Shown: positions 4,729-58,472 of the stretch, piece after piece
How positions within the stretch are numbered: the first letter of the stretch is position 1
Layout: each line of letters starts with the position of its first letter
DNA from: Minisyncoccota bacterium
Lineage (GTDB): Bacteria > Patescibacteriota > Microgenomatia > UBA1400 > UBA12028
Direction: 5' to 3'
NCBI GenBank assembly: GCA_016211945.1
Contig: JACRHV010000011.1
Coordinates: 787-64,786, forward strand
Length of the DNA: 64,000 bases
The notes under the pieces: model-generated
The model's input: only the letters and a program-made list of their open reading frames with translations
Databases searched by the model: none
Told to the model about the DNA's origin: nothing
Position numbers and translations under genes: made by a program

Positions 4729-6261
4729 TTAGCGTTGAGCGAGTGTGTGGTTGATTTCGCCGATGAGCTGCGGACCTTTGTATATCATTCCCGTGATAAG
4801 TTGTACCAGATCTGCTCCCAATACCAGTTTTTTTTGTGCATCGTTGCCGGAAAAAATGCCACCAGTCCCAATGATCGTAAACCGTTTTCCATAGTGTTTC
4901 TTTGTATACGCAATGAGTGTATTTGACCGATTCCATGTTGGTTTTCCGCTCAAGTTCCCGCGACTTTTTTTCCAAAGAACGGTATCCATTGGATGCACAT
5001 CAGGATTTTTTTTATCTTTCGTTAAGTTTCCAAAAATGATGCCTTTGATAAAAGAGAATCCTGAAGCGGTTTTGAGTAAAGCTCCACTCTCTTTCTGTGA
5101 AAGATCAATCGGCATCTTTATGTACACCGGCTTCTTTATCCTCAACGGCTTGAGTGCGACCAATAGTTTTTTTAGTCTGACTGCAGTAGTAAATGGCTGT
5201 CCTCCCACCGTATTTGGGCAGCTAATGTTGAGTTCGTAGTACGCATTTTTTATTGTTGACGCAAGAAACAGTTTAAAGCATGAGACAATATCGGCGATTT
5301 GATCATCTAATGAGGCATAGGTTGCATTTGTACTGCCAATACTTATTCCTGTTGGAATAGTAAAGGTTGTGTGCTCTAACTTCTGAATGATCGCTTGTGC
5401 ACCCACACTCTTAAACCCCTTGTTGACAAGTAGTGCGTTGGATCGCGGAAAACGCCCCAATCTTGGTTTTGCATTTCCTGCATATGGGCGAAATGTCACG
5501 GTGCCAATGGTGTGCCACCCAAATCCAACGGAAGGGAGAATGCCACACAACTCCGCGTTGTAATCAAAGCCTGCGGCGAGTCCCACGGGGTTGGGAAAAC
5601 GTATGCCGTCGATGGTTTTTATCAATGTTTTATTTGCGTATGCGAACATCCATGATACGAGCCTCCGCGTTACCCCCCAACTTCCAAGTGTTTTTCCGAT
5701 TGTTGTCATCGAAACATGCACAAATTCCGCATCAAAGAGAAAAAATAGTGGTTTGAATATATATTGGTATAAAAGCGCGGACACAACAGACCTTGGCGAC
5801 GAACAAAGATCGGAGCATGTGCCTCGTTTCAGGTACCATTGCATGACATTGAGAATAAATAAGACAAGGCAGGCGACCGCGGATCCTAAACAGTAGAGGC
5901 ACCATGCCTGTAGTATGACACCCATAAGAAACACCAGATACCCTGAAAACAAAGCACCAAAAATTGAGAGTCCAAGTTGGATATCATGTGTGTGTAGTTT
6001 TCTATTGAGTATTGTGATGTGATCAATCTCTAAAATATGAAGCGCGGCAAATATAAAGGTGATGAAATAGAAAACTAAACCAAAAAAAGAAAGCGGAACA
6101 CCAAAAAGACTCGACCATGAACTCGTAAGCACCGATCCGCAATCAAACCCGGAAATACATGGGGGCAAGGTTCGCGAAAGTTTCTCATATGTGAGATACG
6201 CGGCATCCATCATACCGAGTATTGATACACTCAAAATACCGAGTCGCAGAAAAAGTTTCAT
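4729..6261 (-). CDS. pyrD: Fusion protein: N-terminal VKOR (vitamin K epoxide reductase-like thiol-quinone oxidoreductase) membrane domain + C-terminal class-2 dihydroorotate dehydrogenase
   Basis: N-terminal 150 aa are hydrophobic helices carrying PPCISGFDCGSVLTSSWSSLFGVPLSFFG (the VKOR loop Cys pair + SxxFGxP) and AWCLYCLG (CxxC in a TM helix). The remainder matches class-2 DHODH end to end: FLFDAEFVHVSMTT (N-terminal quinone-site helices), PVGLAAGFDYNAE, NISCPNT, IIGTGGI, KGPQLIGEI. Confidence 0.75.
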   Translation of the reverse strand: MKLFLRLGILSVSILGMMDAAYLTYEKLSRTLPPCISGFDCGSVLTSSWSSLFGVPLSFFGLVFYFITFIFAALHILEIDHITILNRKLHTHDIQLGLSIFGALFSGYLVFLMGVILQAWCLYCLGSAVACLVLFILNVMQWYLKRGTCSDLCSSPRSVVSALLYQYIFKPLFFLFDAEFVHVSMTTIGKTLGSWGVTRRLVSWMFAYANKTLIKTIDGIRFPNPVGLAAGFDYNAELCGILPSVGFGWHTIGTVTFRPYAGNAKPRLGRFPRSNALLVNKGFKSVGAQAIIQKLEHTTFTIPTGISIGSTNATYASLDDQIADIVSCFKLFLASTIKNAYYELNISCPNTVGGQPFTTAVRLKKLLVALKPLRIKKPVYIKMPIDLSQKESGALLKTASGFSFIKGIIFGNLTKDKKNPDVHPMDTVLWKKSRGNLSGKPTWNRSNTLIAYTKKHYGKRFTIIGTGGIFSGNDAQKKLVLGADLVQLITGMIYKGPQLIGEINHTLAQR

Positions 6262-36165: not shown

Positions 36166-36240
36166 TGTGCCAAGCTGAGGAGTCGAACCTCAATGTCGTG
36201 TTTTTCAGACACGCGCCGTGACCACCTTGGCTAGCTTGGC
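36166..36240 (-). tRNA. tRNA-Phe (anticodon GAA)
   Basis: Reverse complement gccaagctagccaaggtggtcacggcgcgtgtctgaaaaacacg...tgaggttcgactcctcagcttggca; anticodon loop ctGAAaa. Confidence 0.8.
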
Positions 36241-49347: not shown

Positions 49348-51228
49348 ATGGGTAACCCACAGCCAAAAAATCTCGATAATCTTCGCCACTCCTGCGCCCA
49401 CCTGCTCGCAAAGGCAGTACTGGAACTTTACCCCGGCGCACACAACGCGATCGGACCGTCCATAGAACACGGGTTTTACCAAGACTTTGATTTTGGCGAC
49501 ACAAAAATATCAGAAGATGATCTTCCAAAAATTGAGGAAAAAATGCGGGAGATTTTGCCGAGTTGGACACATTTTGAGTTCAATGAGGTGACGCTGGAAG
49601 AAGCAAAAAAATTATTCAAGCATAATCCGTACAAAATTGAGTTGGCAATAGAATTTGCGGGTGAAGGAAAAAAACTTACCACAAATAACCCGGGAAATTT
49701 CCTCGATCTCTGCAAAATGGGTCACGTAGAAAATCCGTCTAAAGAAATGCAACACTTCAAACTCACAAAAGTTGCTGGTGCGTATTGGCGTGGTGATGAA
49801 AAAAATAAAATGCTCACACGTATCTACGGCACGGTGTGGACAACGCAACAAGAGCTCGATACCTATCTTCAACAGCAAGAAGAGGCAAAGAAGCGAGATC
49901 ATCGCAAACTCGGACAAGAGCTCGATTTATTCTCCACAAATATGCTCACGGGCCAGGGACTTATTCTGTGGCATCCAAAACTCGCGGTTGCAAGAAATGT
50001 GGTTGAACAGTACTGGAGAGATGAACACTATAAACGTGGATACCAACTTGTGTTTACACCGCACATTGCAAGCATGGATATGTTCGTCAAAAGTCGGCAC
50101 TTGTCAAAATATATTAACTCGATGTTCCCAGTGATGCTGCACCAATATATCGAGGGAGAAAGCGCGCCGGACTACCAAGTAGATGAGGTGTTGAAACCAA
50201 TGAACTGCCCGAATCACATTCAGATTTTTAAGGCGCGGCCGCGCAGTTATCGCGAGCTGCCACTGCGCATCGGCGAGCTGGGTACGGTATATCGATATGA
50301 GCGCGCCGGTGTTTTGCATGGCATGACACGCGTACGCGGATTTACGCAGGATGACTCGCATATTTTTTGTACGCCGGACCAAGTAATTGGTGAGGTGCGC
50401 AGTGTATTGCAGTTGATGAAAGATGTGTACGCACTTTTTGGTTTCCAAGATTATCAAGCATATATTTCTACGCGCCCGAAAAAATATTTAGGGTCGTTGG
50501 AGATGTGGGATTTTGCAGAAGAGTCGTTGAAAAAAGCTGCATCTGCAGAAAAATTTGAGTACAAAATTGATGAAGGTGAGGGTGTTTTCTACGGTCCAAA
50601 AATCGATATCAAAGTAAAAGACTCTCTTGGTCGCGAGTGGCAGTTGGGGACGGTGCAGTTCGACTTCAACCAGCCGGACAAGGCTGAGTCAACAGAAGAT
50701 GATATTGACGAGTTTTGGCAGCTGAAAACATTCAAGATGAAGTTTAAGACGCGCGAGAATTTGGCGAAGTATTTGAAGCAGATTGGGCGCGGATTCAACG
50801 TAACCTACATTGATAACGACGGAAAAGAAAAACAGTGTGTCATGATTCACCGTGTTGTGTTTGGGTCAATGGAGCGCTTCTTTGGCATCTTGATCGAACA
50901 TTACGGCGGGGCATTCCCATTGTGGATGGCGCCAATCCAGGCTGTGGTCATTCCCATCTCACAGGACCAAAACGAGTACGCGGAAAAGGTGTTAGGTGAG
51001 TTGCGAACTGCTGGCTTACGGGCGGAAAACTGGAACGAGGCCGAGAGTATGCAGAATCGCATCCGCAAAGCGGAACACGAGAAAGTGCCGTTCATGTTGG
51101 TGGTTGGAAAGAAGGAGGCCGCGGAGGGGACGGTGGCGGTACGCGCACGTGGAAATAAAAATGAGGGAGTGGTGAAAGTTGAGGAGTTTGTGAAGAGGTG
51201 TTTGGAGAAGATGGCGGCGAGAGGATAG
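49348..51228 (+). CDS. thrS: Threonyl-tRNA synthetase (lacks the N1/TGS domain; begins in the N2 editing domain)
   Basis: RHSCAHLLAKAV (editing-domain HxxxH); class II motifs HRKLGQELDLFS, FRYE, GSMERF; C-terminal anticodon-binding domain. Confidence 0.9.
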   Translation: MGNPQPKNLDNLRHSCAHLLAKAVLELYPGAHNAIGPSIEHGFYQDFDFGDTKISEDDLPKIEEKMREILPSWTHFEFNEVTLEEAKKLFKHNPYKIELAIEFAGEGKKLTTNNPGNFLDLCKMGHVENPSKEMQHFKLTKVAGAYWRGDEKNKMLTRIYGTVWTTQQELDTYLQQQEEAKKRDHRKLGQELDLFSTNMLTGQGLILWHPKLAVARNVVEQYWRDEHYKRGYQLVFTPHIASMDMFVKSRHLSKYINSMFPVMLHQYIEGESAPDYQVDEVLKPMNCPNHIQIFKARPRSYRELPLRIGELGTVYRYERAGVLHGMTRVRGFTQDDSHIFCTPDQVIGEVRSVLQLMKDVYALFGFQDYQAYISTRPKKYLGSLEMWDFAEESLKKAASAEKFEYKIDEGEGVFYGPKIDIKVKDSLGREWQLGTVQFDFNQPDKAESTEDDIDEFWQLKTFKMKFKTRENLAKYLKQIGRGFNVTYIDNDGKEKQCVMIHRVVFGSMERFFGILIEHYGGAFPLWMAPIQAVVIPISQDQNEYAEKVLGELRTAGLRAENWNEAESMQNRIRKAEHEKVPFMLVVGKKEAAEGTVAVRARGNKNEGVVKVEEFVKRCLEKMAARG

Positions 51229-53863: not shown

Positions 53864-54160
53864 ATGGTTGAAGAAGAAAATCAGGAAACCCCAGAAGAAA
53901 AACTTGAAAACTTGTTTTTGGGCATACAGTCTACTCAAAAAGCTGCAAATGAACTCAAAACAGATACCCTAGCGTCTGCCGAAGAAAAACAGAAATTGAA
54001 TTTACATTTACTTATTCAAATTGAAGATTATAAGTTCTACCTTGAGCAATATGACATGTTAGACGAGAAAAGAGCAGAAATTATTTCCGAGATGAAAAGA
54101 AGTACAAAAGAAATCCTCAGATCAATTGGTGAAGAAATAAAATTACTGAAAAAAGACTAA
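53864..54160 (+). CDS. Hypothetical small acidic coiled-coil protein
   Basis: 98-aa ORF starting 2 nt after rplT. Confidence 0.3.
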   Translation: MVEEENQETPEEKLENLFLGIQSTQKAANELKTDTLASAEEKQKLNLHLLIQIEDYKFYLEQYDMLDEKRAEIISEMKRSTKEILRSIGEEIKLLKKD

Positions 54161-54187: not shown

Positions 54188-54532
54188 ATGCCAACCGCAG
54201 AATCACAACAAGGTTTACGCGAAAAATTGAACAAAGAAGGTGTTGATTCCATCCTCGCCGTTTGTTCCTCATCGTTTCTTGCAAATGAGACAGATCGTGG
54301 TGCTGCTACAACTGAGCAATGGATAAGAACATTTATGTCAGATCATACGTACGCTATTTCTGACGATCTTGCTAAAAAACTTGAACGAGTATTAAGTGAA
54401 ATAGATTCTCATCGAAAGAATCAAAAAAGGACTTTTCAACAAGACTCTTTTGGTAAAGTCGGCGGAGCAAGCCCCACTATCATTCCAGGAGAGGAAGATA
54501 ATCTTGGAAAACATCCCGCAGACCGCGACTAA
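54188..54532 (+). CDS. Hypothetical small protein
   Basis: 114-aa ORF. Confidence 0.3.
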   Translation: MPTAESQQGLREKLNKEGVDSILAVCSSSFLANETDRGAATTEQWIRTFMSDHTYAISDDLAKKLERVLSEIDSHRKNQKRTFQQDSFGKVGGASPTIIPGEEDNLGKHPADRD

Positions 54533-54636
54533 TCTGTGCTACAATAACCCTATGTCTACAAATCTTTTCTCATTTTTCTTTTTTACCTCCAGGGAGGCTG
54601 TTTTGTCGTAGACACAAAAATATCTCGACAACACGA

Positions 54637-54660
54637 CCTCCGAAACTCGGAGGTTTTTTT
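54637..54660 (+). terminator. Rho-independent terminator ~35 nt upstream of pheS
   Basis: cctccgaaactcggaggttttttt. Confidence 0.55.
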
Positions 54661-54692
54661 GTATTGAGGAGAAAGATATAATAGAAGGACTT

Positions 54693-56498
54693 ATGCACAC
54701 AACGGTACTGTACATGAAAGATTCATATCTTCGCGCCACATCTGCAACTATCGCAGAAATCGGCACCGAGGGCTCAACGACCACGGTCGTGCTTGACCAA
54801 ACAGTGATGTACGCGCAAGGAGGAGGACAACCTTCTGATCGCGGCATGATTCGAGGAAAAAACGGGTTGCTTTCGGTTTCGCATGTTTCATATAACGGCG
54901 GTGCGATTAAACATCTTGGAAAATTAACCGGCGAACTTCATGTTGGTGAGACCGTTGAGGTCGAGGTGGACTGGAATGTGCGGTATCGAAACATGCAGAT
55001 GCATACCGCGGGACACATTGTTGATCTTGCAATTAAGCACGTCGCTCCTGAGGCAACCGCCGTAGATGGTGTTCATGGCATAGGGAAAAAACTTCACATT
55101 GAGTACAGCACCTTGATTGAGCCTCGCTTACTTCAAACAATTCAAAAAGAAACCACGGCGCTCATCGAAAAAAATCTTCCTATTCATCTTGAAATGGTTA
55201 CTAGACAGCAACTGGACGAAAAGCGCATTCCACTCCCATTTGATCTGCCAAAAAATAAAGAGCTTCGCATTATGTCAATTGGCGACTCAACACCGATGCC
55301 GGATGGAGGAACACAACTACATACAACTGGCGAGTCGTGGCCCATCATTGTCACGGACATTGTACGCAATAACGGGCATACATTTGTGCAATATACGATG
55401 CAGGAACCTGTAAAAAACGTTCTCAAACAAAAAGATGAGAGAGCTATGAGCGAGTCTTCATTAAACATTGATGATCTCGCTCAATCTATTGAGCGCGAGG
55501 CACAACACGATGTAAAAGTTCTTTCTGCTGATCAATTTCAGACAACATATCTCGCAAAAAAAGGAAAGCTATCTCACCTGATGGATGAGCTCAAAACAGT
55601 TTCACTTGAAGAAAAAAAGAGTGCGGGACAACGAGCAAATGCATTGAAACACACCCTGGAAGCTCTTCTGCTTACGTATGATTCACAGAAAAAAAATAGT
55701 GAAGTGATTGACATGACCATTCCTGGAATACAGCCGAAAGTCGGCCATGTTCATCCCATCTCTCAAGCCATGCATGAAATTACTCGAATATTTGAAAAGA
55801 TTGGATTTATCCGAGTTCGCTACCCAGAAGTTGACTGGGAATGGTATCCATTTGACTCGCTCAATATGCCAAAAGATCACCCTGCTCGTGATGAATGGGA
55901 GACATTTCTTGTTCAAAGTGACTATGTTCATCCTATATTAGGTAAAATGGTACTCACTCCTCATACTTCTAATGGACAGGTCCGTGAGATGCAAAGATTG
56001 CACAGCACACCACCAATCCGCATGATCAACATTGCGCGATGCTATCGAAGACAGGCGGATGTAACACATACAGAGATGTTCCATCAATTCGAAGGCCTCG
56101 TTGTTGATAAAGGCATCACCATTCAACATCTCAAGGGAACTATTGATCATTTTGCTCGTGAGTTCTACGGTCCTCACGCGACGTCCCGCATTCGCCCTTT
56201 CCATTTCCAGTTTACTGAACCGTCATTTGAGGTGGATTTTTCATGCAGCATTTGCGATGGCACGGGTAAACTTAACGGCGACAAGTGCCGTTTTTGCAAG
56301 TCGGGTTGGCACGAAGTCGGTGGAGCCGGAATGGTCCATCCCAATGTGTTGAAAGCGGGTGGCATCGATCCTGAACAATATACAGGATTTGCATTCGGGT
56401 GGGGTATTGAACGGACGTACACCCTCCGTGAAGGATTAAAACTTGATGACATTCGCTTGTTATATAGCGGAGATATGCGATTTCTGGAGCAGTTTTAA
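54693..56498 (+). CDS. pheS: Phenylalanyl-tRNA synthetase alpha subunit carrying an N-terminal ~250-aa AlaX/ThrRS-N2-like (tRNA_SAD-type) editing-domain homolog
   Basis: The N-terminus VVLDQTVMYAQGGGQPSDRGMI...VEVDWNVRYRNMQMHTAGHIV...MPDGGTQLHTTGE follows the AlaX pattern (LDrTiFYPegGGQpxDxG ... DWxrRxxxMxxHTAxH ... CGGTH). The C-terminus carries PheS class II motifs (DHPARDEWETF, LTPHTS, RCYRRQADVTHTEMFHQFEG, GWHEVGGAGMVHPNVL, AFGWGIERT). Confidence 0.8.
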   Translation: MHTTVLYMKDSYLRATSATIAEIGTEGSTTTVVLDQTVMYAQGGGQPSDRGMIRGKNGLLSVSHVSYNGGAIKHLGKLTGELHVGETVEVEVDWNVRYRNMQMHTAGHIVDLAIKHVAPEATAVDGVHGIGKKLHIEYSTLIEPRLLQTIQKETTALIEKNLPIHLEMVTRQQLDEKRIPLPFDLPKNKELRIMSIGDSTPMPDGGTQLHTTGESWPIIVTDIVRNNGHTFVQYTMQEPVKNVLKQKDERAMSESSLNIDDLAQSIEREAQHDVKVLSADQFQTTYLAKKGKLSHLMDELKTVSLEEKKSAGQRANALKHTLEALLLTYDSQKKNSEVIDMTIPGIQPKVGHVHPISQAMHEITRIFEKIGFIRVRYPEVDWEWYPFDSLNMPKDHPARDEWETFLVQSDYVHPILGKMVLTPHTSNGQVREMQRLHSTPPIRMINIARCYRRQADVTHTEMFHQFEGLVVDKGITIQHLKGTIDHFAREFYGPHATSRIRPFHFQFTEPSFEVDFSCSICDGTGKLNGDKCRFCKSGWHEVGGAGMVHPNVLKAGGIDPEQYTGFAFGWGIERTYTLREGLKLDDIRLLYSGDMRFLEQF

Positions 56499-56510: not shown

Positions 56511-58472
56511 ATGAACATTTACGTTCCTCATTTTTGGCTTGCAGATCATCTTGAAACAGACGTATCTCCGGAAGATTTACAAAAACACCTCTCATTACGT
56601 GGTCCATCAATAGAACGAATAGAGGATAAATTTGGCGATCGTGTGTATGAGATCGAGATAACTACGAATCGAATGGATACTGCCTCGGTACGAGGTGTTG
56701 CGAGAGAAGCGAGTGTCATCCTCCCACAAGCGCATATTCCCGCGAAGTTAAAGTCACTAAAAATGTTTAAGCCCGGGACGAGACAAATTACTCACGATCC
56801 TCAAGATTTTCCTTTAAACATTCAAGTTGACCACAAATTATGTCCACGTGTAACGTGTGTTATTCTTCGTGTGAAAAAAGGGCAATCCCCAACATGGTTG
56901 AGTACAAGACTTGAACAAGTTGGTATACGATCTCTTGATAATATTATCGACATCACAAACTATGTGATGACAGAGATTGGCCAACCTACACATGCGTTTG
57001 ATGCTGATCGGGTCGGAAAAACATTAGTGATACGCCCCTCAAAAAAAGGTGAAATGCTCGTCACCCTTGACGGAAAAAGACACACATTACCCGGAGGTGA
57101 CATTGTTATTGACAATGGAAAAGGCGAGATTACTGATTTGATTGGTATTATGGGAACAGCCAACAGTGTCGTGCAACAAGACACAACACGTATTCTTTTC
57201 TTTATCGAGCACGCTGATCCTGCTCGCATCAGAAAAACATCAATGGGCTTGGCAATTCGGACAAATGCTGCACAACTTAACGAAAAAATGCTCGATCCAA
57301 ACCTTGTGATGGATGCTCTGCTACGCGGAATTGCGTTATTTCAAGAAGTCGCTGATGCTGAACTGGAATCACCAATTCTTGATCTTTATCCACAGCCTGT
57401 TCAAGAGCAAGTTATTTCGTTTCCTCTGGCAAAAACACATGAATATCTTGGTATAGATATTTCGTCAAAAGTGCAGAAGAATATTTTGGAAGGTTTGGGG
57501 TGCCAAATTACACACAAAAAAGATGTGTTCAGTATTACCGTTCCAACTTTCCGTCCAGATCTTGAAATTCCTGTTGATATCGTTGAAGAGATTGCGCGTA
57601 TATACGGATATCACAATCTTCCAAGTACACTTATGGACACGCGACTTCCAACTGCGTATCCAGAAGATACAAACTTCACCCTAGAACACGACATGAAGCA
57701 ATTCCTTGCCGCTTTAGGTTGGCAGGAAGTCTATACATATTCCGCCGTCAGTAAAAACTTGGCCGAACAATCAGGAAAGTCGGCAGAAAAACATATAAAA
57801 CTACAAAATCAGCTCAATGATGACCACGTGTATCTTCGACAGTCGCTCGTTCCGTCACACGAAGAAATTATCGCGAATAACCGTCATCTTCAAGATCTTT
57901 CTCTTTTCGAGCTCGCAAACGTGTACATTCCGCGAGAAAAAGATTTGCCTTTGGAGGATTTGAGACTTACGCTTACCTCGACTTTACCGTATCGCGTTGT
58001 AAAGGGACATGGCGAGGCTTTGCTTGCACATCTTTTTATTCCTACCTCCTTGACCGAATGGAAACAAACAGACGATCGCCACGCAGAGATTCTTGTTGAC
58101 GGCAAACAGATTGGTTCAATCATTCATGGAAATGGTCATACCGTCGTTGGATTTGTATGGAAGGCATTGCTACGCGTTGCACAAACACATCCGACGTATA
58201 CGCCAATTTCACCATACTCACCAATTGTTGAGGACCTAACTTTTACTATTCCCGATGGCGCGAGAGTGGGAGATATTGTGAGAGAACTGCAACACCTTCA
58301 TATTATTATTCAATCTGTCGATGTGAAGGATATGTATAAAAAGAATGTGACGTTCTCAATAAAATATCTCCGCACAGATCAGCAGATTGCTACAGGAGAT
58401 GTGGAGCCTGTACGAAAACAGATCGTGCAGTATATGATTGATAAGAAGGCAAAACTCATTGGAGAGATATAA
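56511..58472 (+). CDS. pheT: Phenylalanyl-tRNA synthetase beta subunit (short form without the N-terminal EMAP/tRNA-binding domain)
   Basis: B3/B4 domain NIIDITNYVMTEIGQPTHAFDADRV; 653 aa versus ~795 for E. coli; follows pheS. Confidence 0.85.
   Translation: MNIYVPHFWLADHLETDVSPEDLQKHLSLRGPSIERIEDKFGDRVYEIEITTNRMDTASVRGVAREASVILPQAHIPAKLKSLKMFKPGTRQITHDPQDFPLNIQVDHKLCPRVTCVILRVKKGQSPTWLSTRLEQVGIRSLDNIIDITNYVMTEIGQPTHAFDADRVGKTLVIRPSKKGEMLVTLDGKRHTLPGGDIVIDNGKGEITDLIGIMGTANSVVQQDTTRILFFIEHADPARIRKTSMGLAIRTNAAQLNEKMLDPNLVMDALLRGIALFQEVADAELESPILDLYPQPVQEQVISFPLAKTHEYLGIDISSKVQKNILEGLGCQITHKKDVFSITVPTFRPDLEIPVDIVEEIARIYGYHNLPSTLMDTRLPTAYPEDTNFTLEHDMKQFLAALGWQEVYTYSAVSKNLAEQSGKSAEKHIKLQNQLNDDHVYLRQSLVPSHEEIIANNRHLQDLSLFELANVYIPREKDLPLEDLRLTLTSTLPYRVVKGHGEALLAHLFIPTSLTEWKQTDDRHAEILVDGKQIGSIIHGNGHTVVGFVWKALLRVAQTHPTYTPISPYSPIVEDLTFTIPDGARVGDIVRELQHLHIIIQSVDVKDMYKKNVTFSIKYLRTDQQIATGDVEPVRKQIVQYMIDKKAKLIGEI

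Follow-up and report, generated by a model that had tools for sequence, protein, structure and literature searches.

We analysed a 64,000-nucleotide stretch of contig JACRHV010000011.1 (assembly GCA_016211945.1, a Minisyncoccota bacterium), referred to below as the window, in which pheS, the gene for the alpha subunit of phenylalanyl-tRNA synthetase (PheRS), carries an additional N-terminal domain. The open reading frame (ORF) was found at exactly the coordinates given in an earlier reading of the bare sequence, hereafter the original prediction, and it lies in the order thrS-infC-rpmI-rplT-pheS-pheT, with pheT starting 13 nt past the pheS stop codon. Its product begins with an AlaX-M-type domain (residues 1-240), which a tether (241-251) connects to a canonical and complete PheS (252-601). 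An identical protein is present at NCBI as MBI5151825.1, from a Candidatus Pacebacteria/Paceibacterota metagenome-assembled genome (MAG), where it is annotated only as 'phenylalanine--tRNA ligase subunit alpha'. The gene is made up as follows:

54693-56498, plus strand: the fused pheS ORF, 601 aa.
54693-55412, plus strand: AlaX-M-type domain, residues 1-240, a beta-barrel subdomain with a Gly-rich loop plus an editing core (AlaXM profile, PDB sequence matches, AlphaFold2 (AF2) model, Foldseek).
54819-54833, plus strand: Gly-rich loop G43-G-G-Q-P47, with D49 and G51 behind it (little or no variation among 116 fused homologues; canonical AlaX-M has it too).
55002-55016, plus strand: HxxxH motif, H104-T-A-G-H108 (homologue alignment).
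55302-55316, plus strand: D204-G-G-T-Q208, a variant of the canonical CxGxH motif (homologue alignment).
55383-55385, plus strand: F231, the equivalent of the G3:U70-contact residue R693 of E. coli AlaRS (gap-free alignment, offset 462).
55413-55445, plus strand: flexible tether, residues 241-251 (low model confidence, low identity, variable length).
55446-55694, plus strand: PheS N-terminal helical arm, residues 252-334, from the ancestral start Met252 (PF02912, AF2 helices, alignments).
55695-56498, plus strand: PheS class II catalytic core, residues 335-601, and stop codon (PF01409; GFAFG).

The identity of the N-terminal domain was determined from profiles, known structures and a predicted fold. 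The NCBIfam AlaXM profile NF040865 matched PheS residues 4-222 (E=8e-34) with 117.4 bits, a score far under the equivalog cutoff of 300 bits; free-standing members of the clade described below scored 127-149 bits against this profile. In Pfam, the tRNA-synt_2c C-terminal barrel, the extreme C-terminal part of the AlaRS model and the beta-barrel before the editing core, was detected at residues 25-95 (E=7e-15), and tRNA_SAD (PF07973), which the original prediction had expected, gave no match on PheS. Among PDB sequences the domain matched AlaX-M (2E1B, E=1e-16; also 9IUW) and, at about 1e-11, AlaRS editing domains. An AF2 model of residues 1-262 (predicted local distance difference test, pLDDT, 92.6; predicted template modelling score, pTM, 0.87) contained both subdomains of the AlaX-M fold, the beta-barrel with its Gly-rich loop and the alpha/beta editing core. 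In Foldseek this model matched the editing region of AlaRS (2ZZE, E=6e-18, TMq 0.78) and the AlaX-M structures 3KEW, 9IUW and 2E1B (TMt, normalised to the target, 0.84-0.86). ThrRS N2 structures were distant fold matches only (TMq 0.44-0.47, root-mean-square deviation 6.7-8.0 Å), AlaX-S was likewise further from the domain than AlaX-M or the AlaRS editing regions, and the set of features that marks ThrRS N2 (HxxxH together with D-x-C-x-G-x-H, a preceding TGS domain and a place within ThrRS) was not found in the PheS N-terminus. Sequence, profile and fold evidence thus agree on a domain of the AlaX-M/AlaRS-editing type, as had been predicted. The prediction had named beforehand two outcomes that would speak against it, namely an alignment of the region to the ordinary PheS arm or a lack of significant AlaX similarity; residues 1-240 could not be aligned to the arm, and the similarity to AlaX is highly significant.

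Behind the added domain lies an entire PheS. Pfam tRNA-synt_2d (PF01409) matched residues 339-601 (E=4e-76), with class II motif 3, GFAFG, read directly from the sequence; Phe_tRNA-synt_N (PF02912) matched residues 280-327 (E=1e-11); and residues 252-601 aligned end to end with residues 3-337 of Pseudomonas aeruginosa PheS (4P71, E=2e-72). The C-terminal ~350 residues are therefore a class II PheS, as claimed at the outset. Against the TIGR00468 pheS equivalog the protein scored 236.0 bits, 1.5 bits short of the cutoff of 237.45, yet its identity as pheS is beyond real doubt because of the synteny with pheT and rplT. The full-length AF2 model had good local confidence with a pTM of 0.46; residues 242-255 were disordered (pLDDT <50) and helices spanned 259-334. 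The original prediction, which held that the N-terminus does not look like the usual helical arm of PheS, is to be amended here: the arm is not replaced, being retained at about 259-334, and the module has been added in front of it. Consistent with this layout, P0099, an ordinary PheS of 347 aa and 76% identical to the window PheS, aligns its M1 exactly with Met252. Directly behind the tether, the ATG of Met252 (55446-55448) remains in frame, preceded at 5-10 nt by a purine-rich GAGAGAG, and translation could conceivably start there as well and give a short PheS. Such initiation was rejected as a conserved means of making two isoforms, since Met252 is not conserved across the fused family. A CxxC-x10-CxxC insertion in the core (residues 508-536, 56214-56301) also proved ordinary: P. 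aeruginosa (4P71) and Staphylococcus haemolyticus (2RHQ) PheS have the same four Cys, in a loop 6 residues shorter.

PheS N-termini were surveyed, as the original prediction had proposed, in the best 120 clusters from a collection of 5.8 billion proteins. Full-length fusions (at least 560 aa, 100% coverage) made up 116 of the 120, with identities down to 47%; they came from many samples and assemblers and, where named, from Pacebacteria, Microgenomates, Woesebacteria or Patescibacteria. Averaged over 115 of these homologues, identity to the window PheS was 46% in the AlaX domain, 7% in the tether, 26% in the helical arm and 75% in the core, and tether lengths ranged between 17 and 62 aa. These figures show a clearly constrained added domain on a free linker. 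This survey also effectively refutes the extremely improbable reading that the long ORF is an artefact, with a mis-assembly, a frameshift or a mis-called start joining a separate AlaX gene to pheS. Although the ancestral PheS start is still in frame behind a purine-rich stretch, and although the two genes are separate in the relatives L030, L056 and L058, an artefact would not turn up independently in 116 full-length homologues that differ so widely in sequence, sample and assembler. Moreover, the frame is continuous and free of stops between the two domains, Met252 has not been kept in the fused family, and a GAAGGA Shine-Dalgarno-like site as well as a leader and a terminator precede the ATG at 54693:

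54552-54611, plus strand: Phe-rich leader peptide ORF, MSTNLFSFFFFTSREAVLS and stop, upstream of pheS (read from the sequence).
54635-54661, plus strand: intrinsic terminator hairpin and T-run between leader and pheS, an attenuator (terminator scan).

All motifs quoted in the original prediction were found, GGGQP at residues 43-47, HTAGH at 104-108 and DGGTQ at 204-208, and their conservation was examined in the 116 fused homologues. H104 was present in 116/116 and H108 in 113/116, and the Gly-rich loop G43-G-G-Q46 with D49 and G51 was essentially invariant. At the position of the canonical Cys, Asp was found in 115/116, next to G205-G206-T207, and position 208 was Gln in 87 and His in 26. The window PheS thus has D204-G-G-T-Q208 in place of the CxGxH of the AlaX-M/AlaRS-editing family, and of the four Zn ligands both HxxxH histidines are kept, whereas the Cys has become Asp and the last His mostly Gln. 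The prediction of an HxxxH motif accompanied by a degenerate CGGTH-like element was therefore right in its first half only, the second element being a conserved variant. With the N-terminal domain alone as query, HMMER was run exhaustively against 1.84 billion representatives and returned 6934 matches. A motif comparison separated two groups: Asp occupied the Cys position in 76/76 members of the clade described below, whereas canonical free-standing AlaX-M-like proteins among the top 150 matches had Cys in 118/118 and His in 118/118. All other conserved AlaX-M residues, namely HxxxH, the Gly-rich loop, GGT, R97, R192 and Y234, are shared by both. The Asp form is a lineage signature and not decay.

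The change of motif is specific to the PheS N-terminal domain, because the threonyl-tRNA synthetase encoded in the window keeps canonical motifs:

49348-51228, plus strand: thrS, starting at the N2 editing domain (motifs HSCAH and CKMGH).

As the original prediction stated, this gene begins directly at N2, with HSCAH at residues 14-18. Its product has no TGS/N1 domain and carries an extra ~35-80 residues in the catalytic region (TIGR00418 match split at ~447/481). In AlaRS-Ed, AlaX and ThrRS-Ed the HxxxH and CxGxH motifs have been described as universally conserved in a 2025 study; within the ThrRS-Ed site, the 2'-OH of A76 is bound by the Cys, while activation of the catalytic water falls to the first His, and Zn is dispensable for AlaX activity yet shields the Cys from oxidation (PMC12003907).

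To place the variant among its relatives, 203 AlaX-M-like domains were arranged in a tree built by neighbour-joining only, from which independent fusions per architecture cannot be counted. One clade of 79 leaves (the Asp clade) held 76 of the 81 Asp variants and 44/44 PheRS-linked sequences; its transfer bootstrap was 0.93 and its exact-bipartition support only 5/100, owing to a few unstable taxa. The Asp variant was found in 12/13 PheRS-fused representatives, compared with 13/~124 free-standing ones. Linkage to PheRS occurs in at least four configurations, all within the Asp clade. The domain is fused to the N-terminus of PheS in L001-L020, L025 and P0122-P0135, with the gene order of the window conserved in L001-L020 and others. 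It is fused to the C-terminus of PheT in L043, P0140, P0146, P0152, P0182 and P0223; the layout is B3_4-B5-CLM-FDX-ACB-AlaX in L043, P0140, P0152 and P0223, and in the 1089-aa P0182 a tRNA_bind domain follows FDX-ACB and directly precedes the C-terminal AlaX-like domain. A separate AlaX-like gene of 239-246 aa lies between rplT and pheS in L030, L056 and L058. Finally, in L060 (4316-10552) genes for a cupin, AlaX, orf759 and a haem-oxygenase-like diiron enzyme follow one another closely on one strand, ahead of pheS and a full-length pheT (787 aa), as a single cassette. Fusion to opposite ends of two different subunits implies more than one event, and this recurrent attachment to PheRS is the strongest argument for a domain that works with PheRS.

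Several further observations were made on members of this clade. P0132 (607 aa) is the sole PheS fusion with canonical Cys and His (VPCGATHLK), and the first His of its HxxxH is Gln; it was placed inside the 79-leaf clade beside Asp variants and may mark the transition to the Asp form. L057 (3829-6228) has a free Asp-variant AlaX with a WelO5-like 2-oxoglutarate-Fe(II) enzyme and a helix-turn-helix regulator, beside an integrase and a transposase. In L061 (3441-9236) a radical SAM/SPASM gene, AlaX, an ORF of unknown function and a tyrosine-decarboxylase-like gene stand together, and the tyrosine-decarboxylase-like enzyme with a radical-SAM gene is also listed for L062. A small ORF with a Nudix motif, recognised by eye, lies directly downstream of the AlaX-like gene or domain in L030 (6720-7070) and L043 (5963-6436). 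Several TPA_asm MAGs titled 'uncultured Pseudomonadales' or 'Gammaproteobacteria' (L001, L005-L007, L011-L013, L019, L020, L030, L034, L043) show features typical of the candidate phyla radiation (CPR), namely the thrS-...-pheS-pheT synteny, a short PheT and a fused PheS, and their labels are probably wrong.

The same linkage bears on the possibility of an ordinary AlaX (either a deacylase of Ser/Gly-tRNA-Ala or a Ser deacylase of relaxed tRNA specificity) that is fused to PheS for co-expression and has no functional tie to phenylalanine. In its favour, profiles and structures match AlaX-M and AlaRS editing domains best, and many members of the Asp clade stand alone, away from pheST; chance, however, would not attach the domain to the alpha N-terminus and to the beta C-terminus, place it beside pheS in the operon and put it in a further cassette, each time drawing on one and the same clade. 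The AlaXM score of 117 bits, set against a cutoff of 300, and the change of a CxGxH motif that is invariant in 118/118 canonical members also argue against an ordinary AlaX, and so do the residues expected to read tRNA-Ala. We mapped E. coli AlaRS numbering onto the family by local-pair alignment; the R693 column lay at an offset of 462, free of gaps. In AlaRS, R693 has been suggested to contact G3:U70, and AlaX proteins with Glu or a hydrophobic residue at this position have relaxed tRNA specificity (PMC11260482). The position is Arg or Lys in 105/118 canonical AlaX-M and Arg in 19/43 PheRS-linked Asp-clade members; in the window PheS it is Phe231, and the basic residue is thus absent. Likewise, the hairpin after the motif is Lys-rich in canonical AlaX-M and neutral or acidic in the Asp clade. 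Together, the altered R693 position and hairpin argue against a dedicated tRNA-Ala factor without implying specificity for tRNA-Phe. Human and yeast AlaX, hydrophobic at the R693 position, edit Ser-tRNAs broadly (PMC11260482), a precedent for relaxed Ser editing; weighing this against the linkage and the motif change, we consider an ordinary AlaX quite improbable. The tRNA-Phe of the window (36167-36240, minus strand) has C3:G70 and A73. No AlaRS catalytic domain was found by tblastn with E. coli alaS, a search that covered the window and the collected loci.

The partner subunit is encoded immediately downstream:

56511-58472, plus strand: pheT, short form with B3_4, B5, CLM and a weak FDX-ACB, without B2/tRNA_bind (profile matches).
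57201-57203, plus strand: PheT F231, the equivalent of beta-Glu334 of the B3/B4 editing site (alignment to Thermus thermophilus PheT).

PheT matched positions 156-595 of the pheT_bact model and lacks the N-terminal tRNA_bind/B2 part, in agreement with the short, B3/B4-containing form described in the original prediction. This absence of the B2/tRNA_bind OB-fold is a feature of the lineage. In the alignment to T. thermophilus PheT, R240, T249, N250, H261, G315, G318, T354 and A356 of the B3/B4 site are kept, and beta-Glu334, which recognises the Tyr hydroxyl (PMC8599791), is replaced by Phe (residue 231). Phe, Trp or Leu occupies this position in 20/22 AlaX-linked loci. That the module replaces a dead B3/B4 site was considered and rejected, for loss of Glu334 does not track the module: Phe is found in the unfused L055, and Glu in all six PheT fusions. 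The loss thus counts as no more than weak context for a proofreading role; it is a lineage trait and not a correlate of the AlaX module, and throughout this CPR lineage PheRS may edit Tyr in a way that departs from the canonical one.

A PheT of this kind could suggest that the module is a non-catalytic appendage, holding the acceptor arm of tRNA-Phe and offsetting the missing B2/tRNA_bind domain. The AlaX-like domain of Plasmodium TrpRS is needed for tRNA binding and aminoacylation, not for editing (PMC3680381); all PheRS partners in the CPR loci have a PheT without N-terminal B2; P0182 carries a relocated tRNA_bind domain adjoining its AlaX module; and the Cys held to be crucial for proofreading is absent. 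The TrpRS domain, however, has lost all four motif residues, whereas the PheS domain keeps HxxxH, the Gly-rich loop and GGT invariant, with a fixed Asp (115/116), which places the pocket under selection and makes selection for a tRNA-binding surface less likely. Furthermore, the basic hairpin that faces the acceptor stem has been lost and not strengthened, the module of L060 is linked to a PheRS with a full-length 787-aa PheT, and an unfused relative with the same short PheT manages without the module. A purely tRNA-binding role is, in our judgement, unlikely. The original prediction had left the choice between a second editing site and a replacement tRNA-binding domain; the conserved active site and the repeated independent joining to PheRS favour editing, without proving it.

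Building on the fold, the conservation of the active site, the structure of the clade and its repeated physical and genomic linkage to PheRS, we lean, by a modest degree, towards the domain being a tethered, thiol-free aminoacyl-tRNA deacylase that would proofread tRNA-Phe. In the mechanism we propose, a functional PheRS alpha subunit has gained an AlaX-M-type deacylase domain, joined to its N-terminus through a flexible tether. The tether would keep the domain at high local concentration, so that, as aminoacyl-tRNA-Phe left the synthetic site, its acceptor end could be sampled again by the domain. In the pocket, H104 would activate the catalytic water and Asp204 would substitute for the Cys, for example by a hydrogen bond to the A76 2'-OH or to water. 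Hydrolysis of the non-cognate aminoacyl ester would then provide a second editing activity beside B3/B4 of the beta subunit and, with no thiol in the active site, proofreading may be insensitive to oxidation. Tyr, meta-tyrosine (m-Tyr) and beta-hydroxy-Phe are candidate substrates only; hydroxylated aromatic analogues are reasonable candidates because the AlaX fold has been retargeted elsewhere and because of the cassettes in L057, L061/L062 and L060. A wider proposal, possible but on balance doubtful, is that the whole Asp clade is an unrecognised PheRS-dedicated proofreading family, occurring in tethered, operon-encoded and free forms with a Cys-free and probably Zn-independent site, which would remove m-Tyr, ortho-tyrosine, 3,4-dihydroxyphenylalanine (DOPA) and beta-hydroxy-Phe from tRNA-Phe.

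A number of points weigh against proofreading of tRNA-Phe by this domain. All characterised substrates of the AlaX family are, to our knowledge, small or beta-hydroxylated. The known error of PheRS is Tyr or m-Tyr, with which B3/B4 already deals. Access of the domain to the CCA end is assumed, as the full-length model, at a pTM of 0.46, shows no fixed docking. The module is dispensable, as is shown by the close relative L055, whose 347-aa PheS is unfused and whose operon contains no AlaX gene; L055, too, has Phe at beta-334. Many members of the Asp clade are free-standing without a PheRS neighbourhood, in MAGs labelled Chlamydiae, Roizmanbacteria, Gottesmanbacteria and Chloroflexota, and no conserved neighbourhood was found around 21 free-standing Asp-variant genes, where only a 209-aa ORF recurs, at 3 loci. 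Mutational work has also found the Cys of CxGxH crucial for proofreading (PMC12003907). Lastly, 6/6 PheT fusions keep Glu334 and the full set of B3/B4 residues; the presence of the AlaX module together with an intact B3/B4 suggests an activity that is additional to B3/B4 and not a replacement for it.

Other features of the window touch on the expression of the operon or lie apart from it. The leader and terminator upstream of pheS form a pheM-type attenuator (54552-54661, plus strand), in which the 19-codon leader contains 5 Phe and is followed by the terminator GACCTCCGAAACTCGGAGGTT and its T-run. The leader region folds with -29.4 kcal/mol (z=-3.9), and its CCUCC/GGAGG repeats would permit alternative pairings; leaders with Phe runs also lie 5' of pheS in L009, L011, L014, L016, L020 and L053/L055. 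Between rplT and the leader are two ORFs of 98 and 114 aa (53864-54160 and 54188-54532, plus strand). A 510-aa ORF at 4729-6261 on the minus strand joins an N-terminal VKOR domain (residues 9-138) to a dihydroorotate dehydrogenase domain (214-509) and may be a quinone-coupling fusion.

Candidate-phyla bacteria scavenge amino acids from their hosts. Were the domain active, it would point to a problem of Phe-codon fidelity in such bacteria that canonical B3/B4 leaves unsolved, it would offer a natural test of the roles of Cys and Zn in AlaX, AlaRS and ThrRS editing enzymes, and it would represent an oxidation-proof editing chemistry; an Asp-variant AlaX adjoining pheST or oxygenases could then serve as a marker for the metabolism of Phe analogues. 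If the clade were indeed a PheRS-dedicated family, the AlaX/N2 editing fold would have been taken up by a third synthetase family, PheRS, which would also be the first synthetase known to have a post-transfer editing domain on each of its two subunits, the two domains being unrelated. The Asp clade would break two generalisations, that the fold is limited to Ala/Thr quality control and free AlaX and that its essential, redox-sensitive Cys is invariant. Reviews place the editing fold only in AlaRS, ThrRS and free AlaXp. In the literature searched, which left most subscription journals outside, we found no description of an AlaX-type domain on PheRS or of an Asp variant of CxGxH, and literature on CPR synthetase editing domains and Patescibacteria PheRS, within that search, did not describe an AlaX-PheRS fusion.

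Among known systems, the PheS N-terminal domain is closest to AlaX-M (type II AlaXp; Pyrococcus horikoshii PH0108, 2E1B; P. furiosus, 9IUW; Clostridium perfringens, 3KEW), with which it shares the two-subdomain fold of ~240 aa, the GGGQ loop, HxxxH, GGT, R97, R192 and Y234. Unlike AlaX-M, it has Asp and Gln for the Cys and His of CxGxH, has lost the R693 equivalent and the Lys-rich hairpin, and is carried covalently on PheS. The cis-editing domains of AlaRS and of bacterial ThrRS (N2) are likewise homologous hydrolytic folds on class II synthetases, N-terminal in ThrRS, and the thrS of the window carries its own N2 domain 3.5 kb upstream of the fused pheS. They differ in keeping HxxxH/CxGxH and in serving the error of their own synthetase, Ser or Gly for Ala and Ser for Thr; PheRS, the host here, already has an unrelated editing domain, B3/B4, on its other subunit. 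B3/B4 itself has the same presumed task as the AlaX-type domain, hydrolysis of mis-acylated tRNA-Phe, with an unrelated fold on a different subunit. The AlaX-like domain (AXD) of apicomplexan TrpRS resembles the PheS domain in architecture, since a linker joins it to the N-terminal end of a synthetase that is neither AlaRS nor ThrRS; it is of the short AlaX-S type with D/S/N/V at the four motif positions and is held to bind tRNA (PMC3680381). The PheS domain, in contrast, is of the AlaX-M type with an intact HxxxH and a conserved Asp/Gln, and the loss of all motif residues seen in TrpRS was not found in it. A further parallel is provided by BesG, AlfB and FuzB, in which the AlaX fold has acquired specificity for other tRNAs and larger non-canonical amino acids; experiments established retargeting to beta-ethynylserine-tRNA-Thr and beta-hydroxy-Met-tRNA-Met, and probably to beta-hydroxy-Arg/tRNA-Arg (PMC13149037). 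These three are free-standing resistance genes of producers, and neither action on tRNA-Phe nor fusion to a synthetase has been reported for any of them. The oxygenase-containing cassettes around the free Asp-clade members of L057, L060 and L061 are comparable to the biosynthetic clusters in which BesG, AlfB and FuzB lie.

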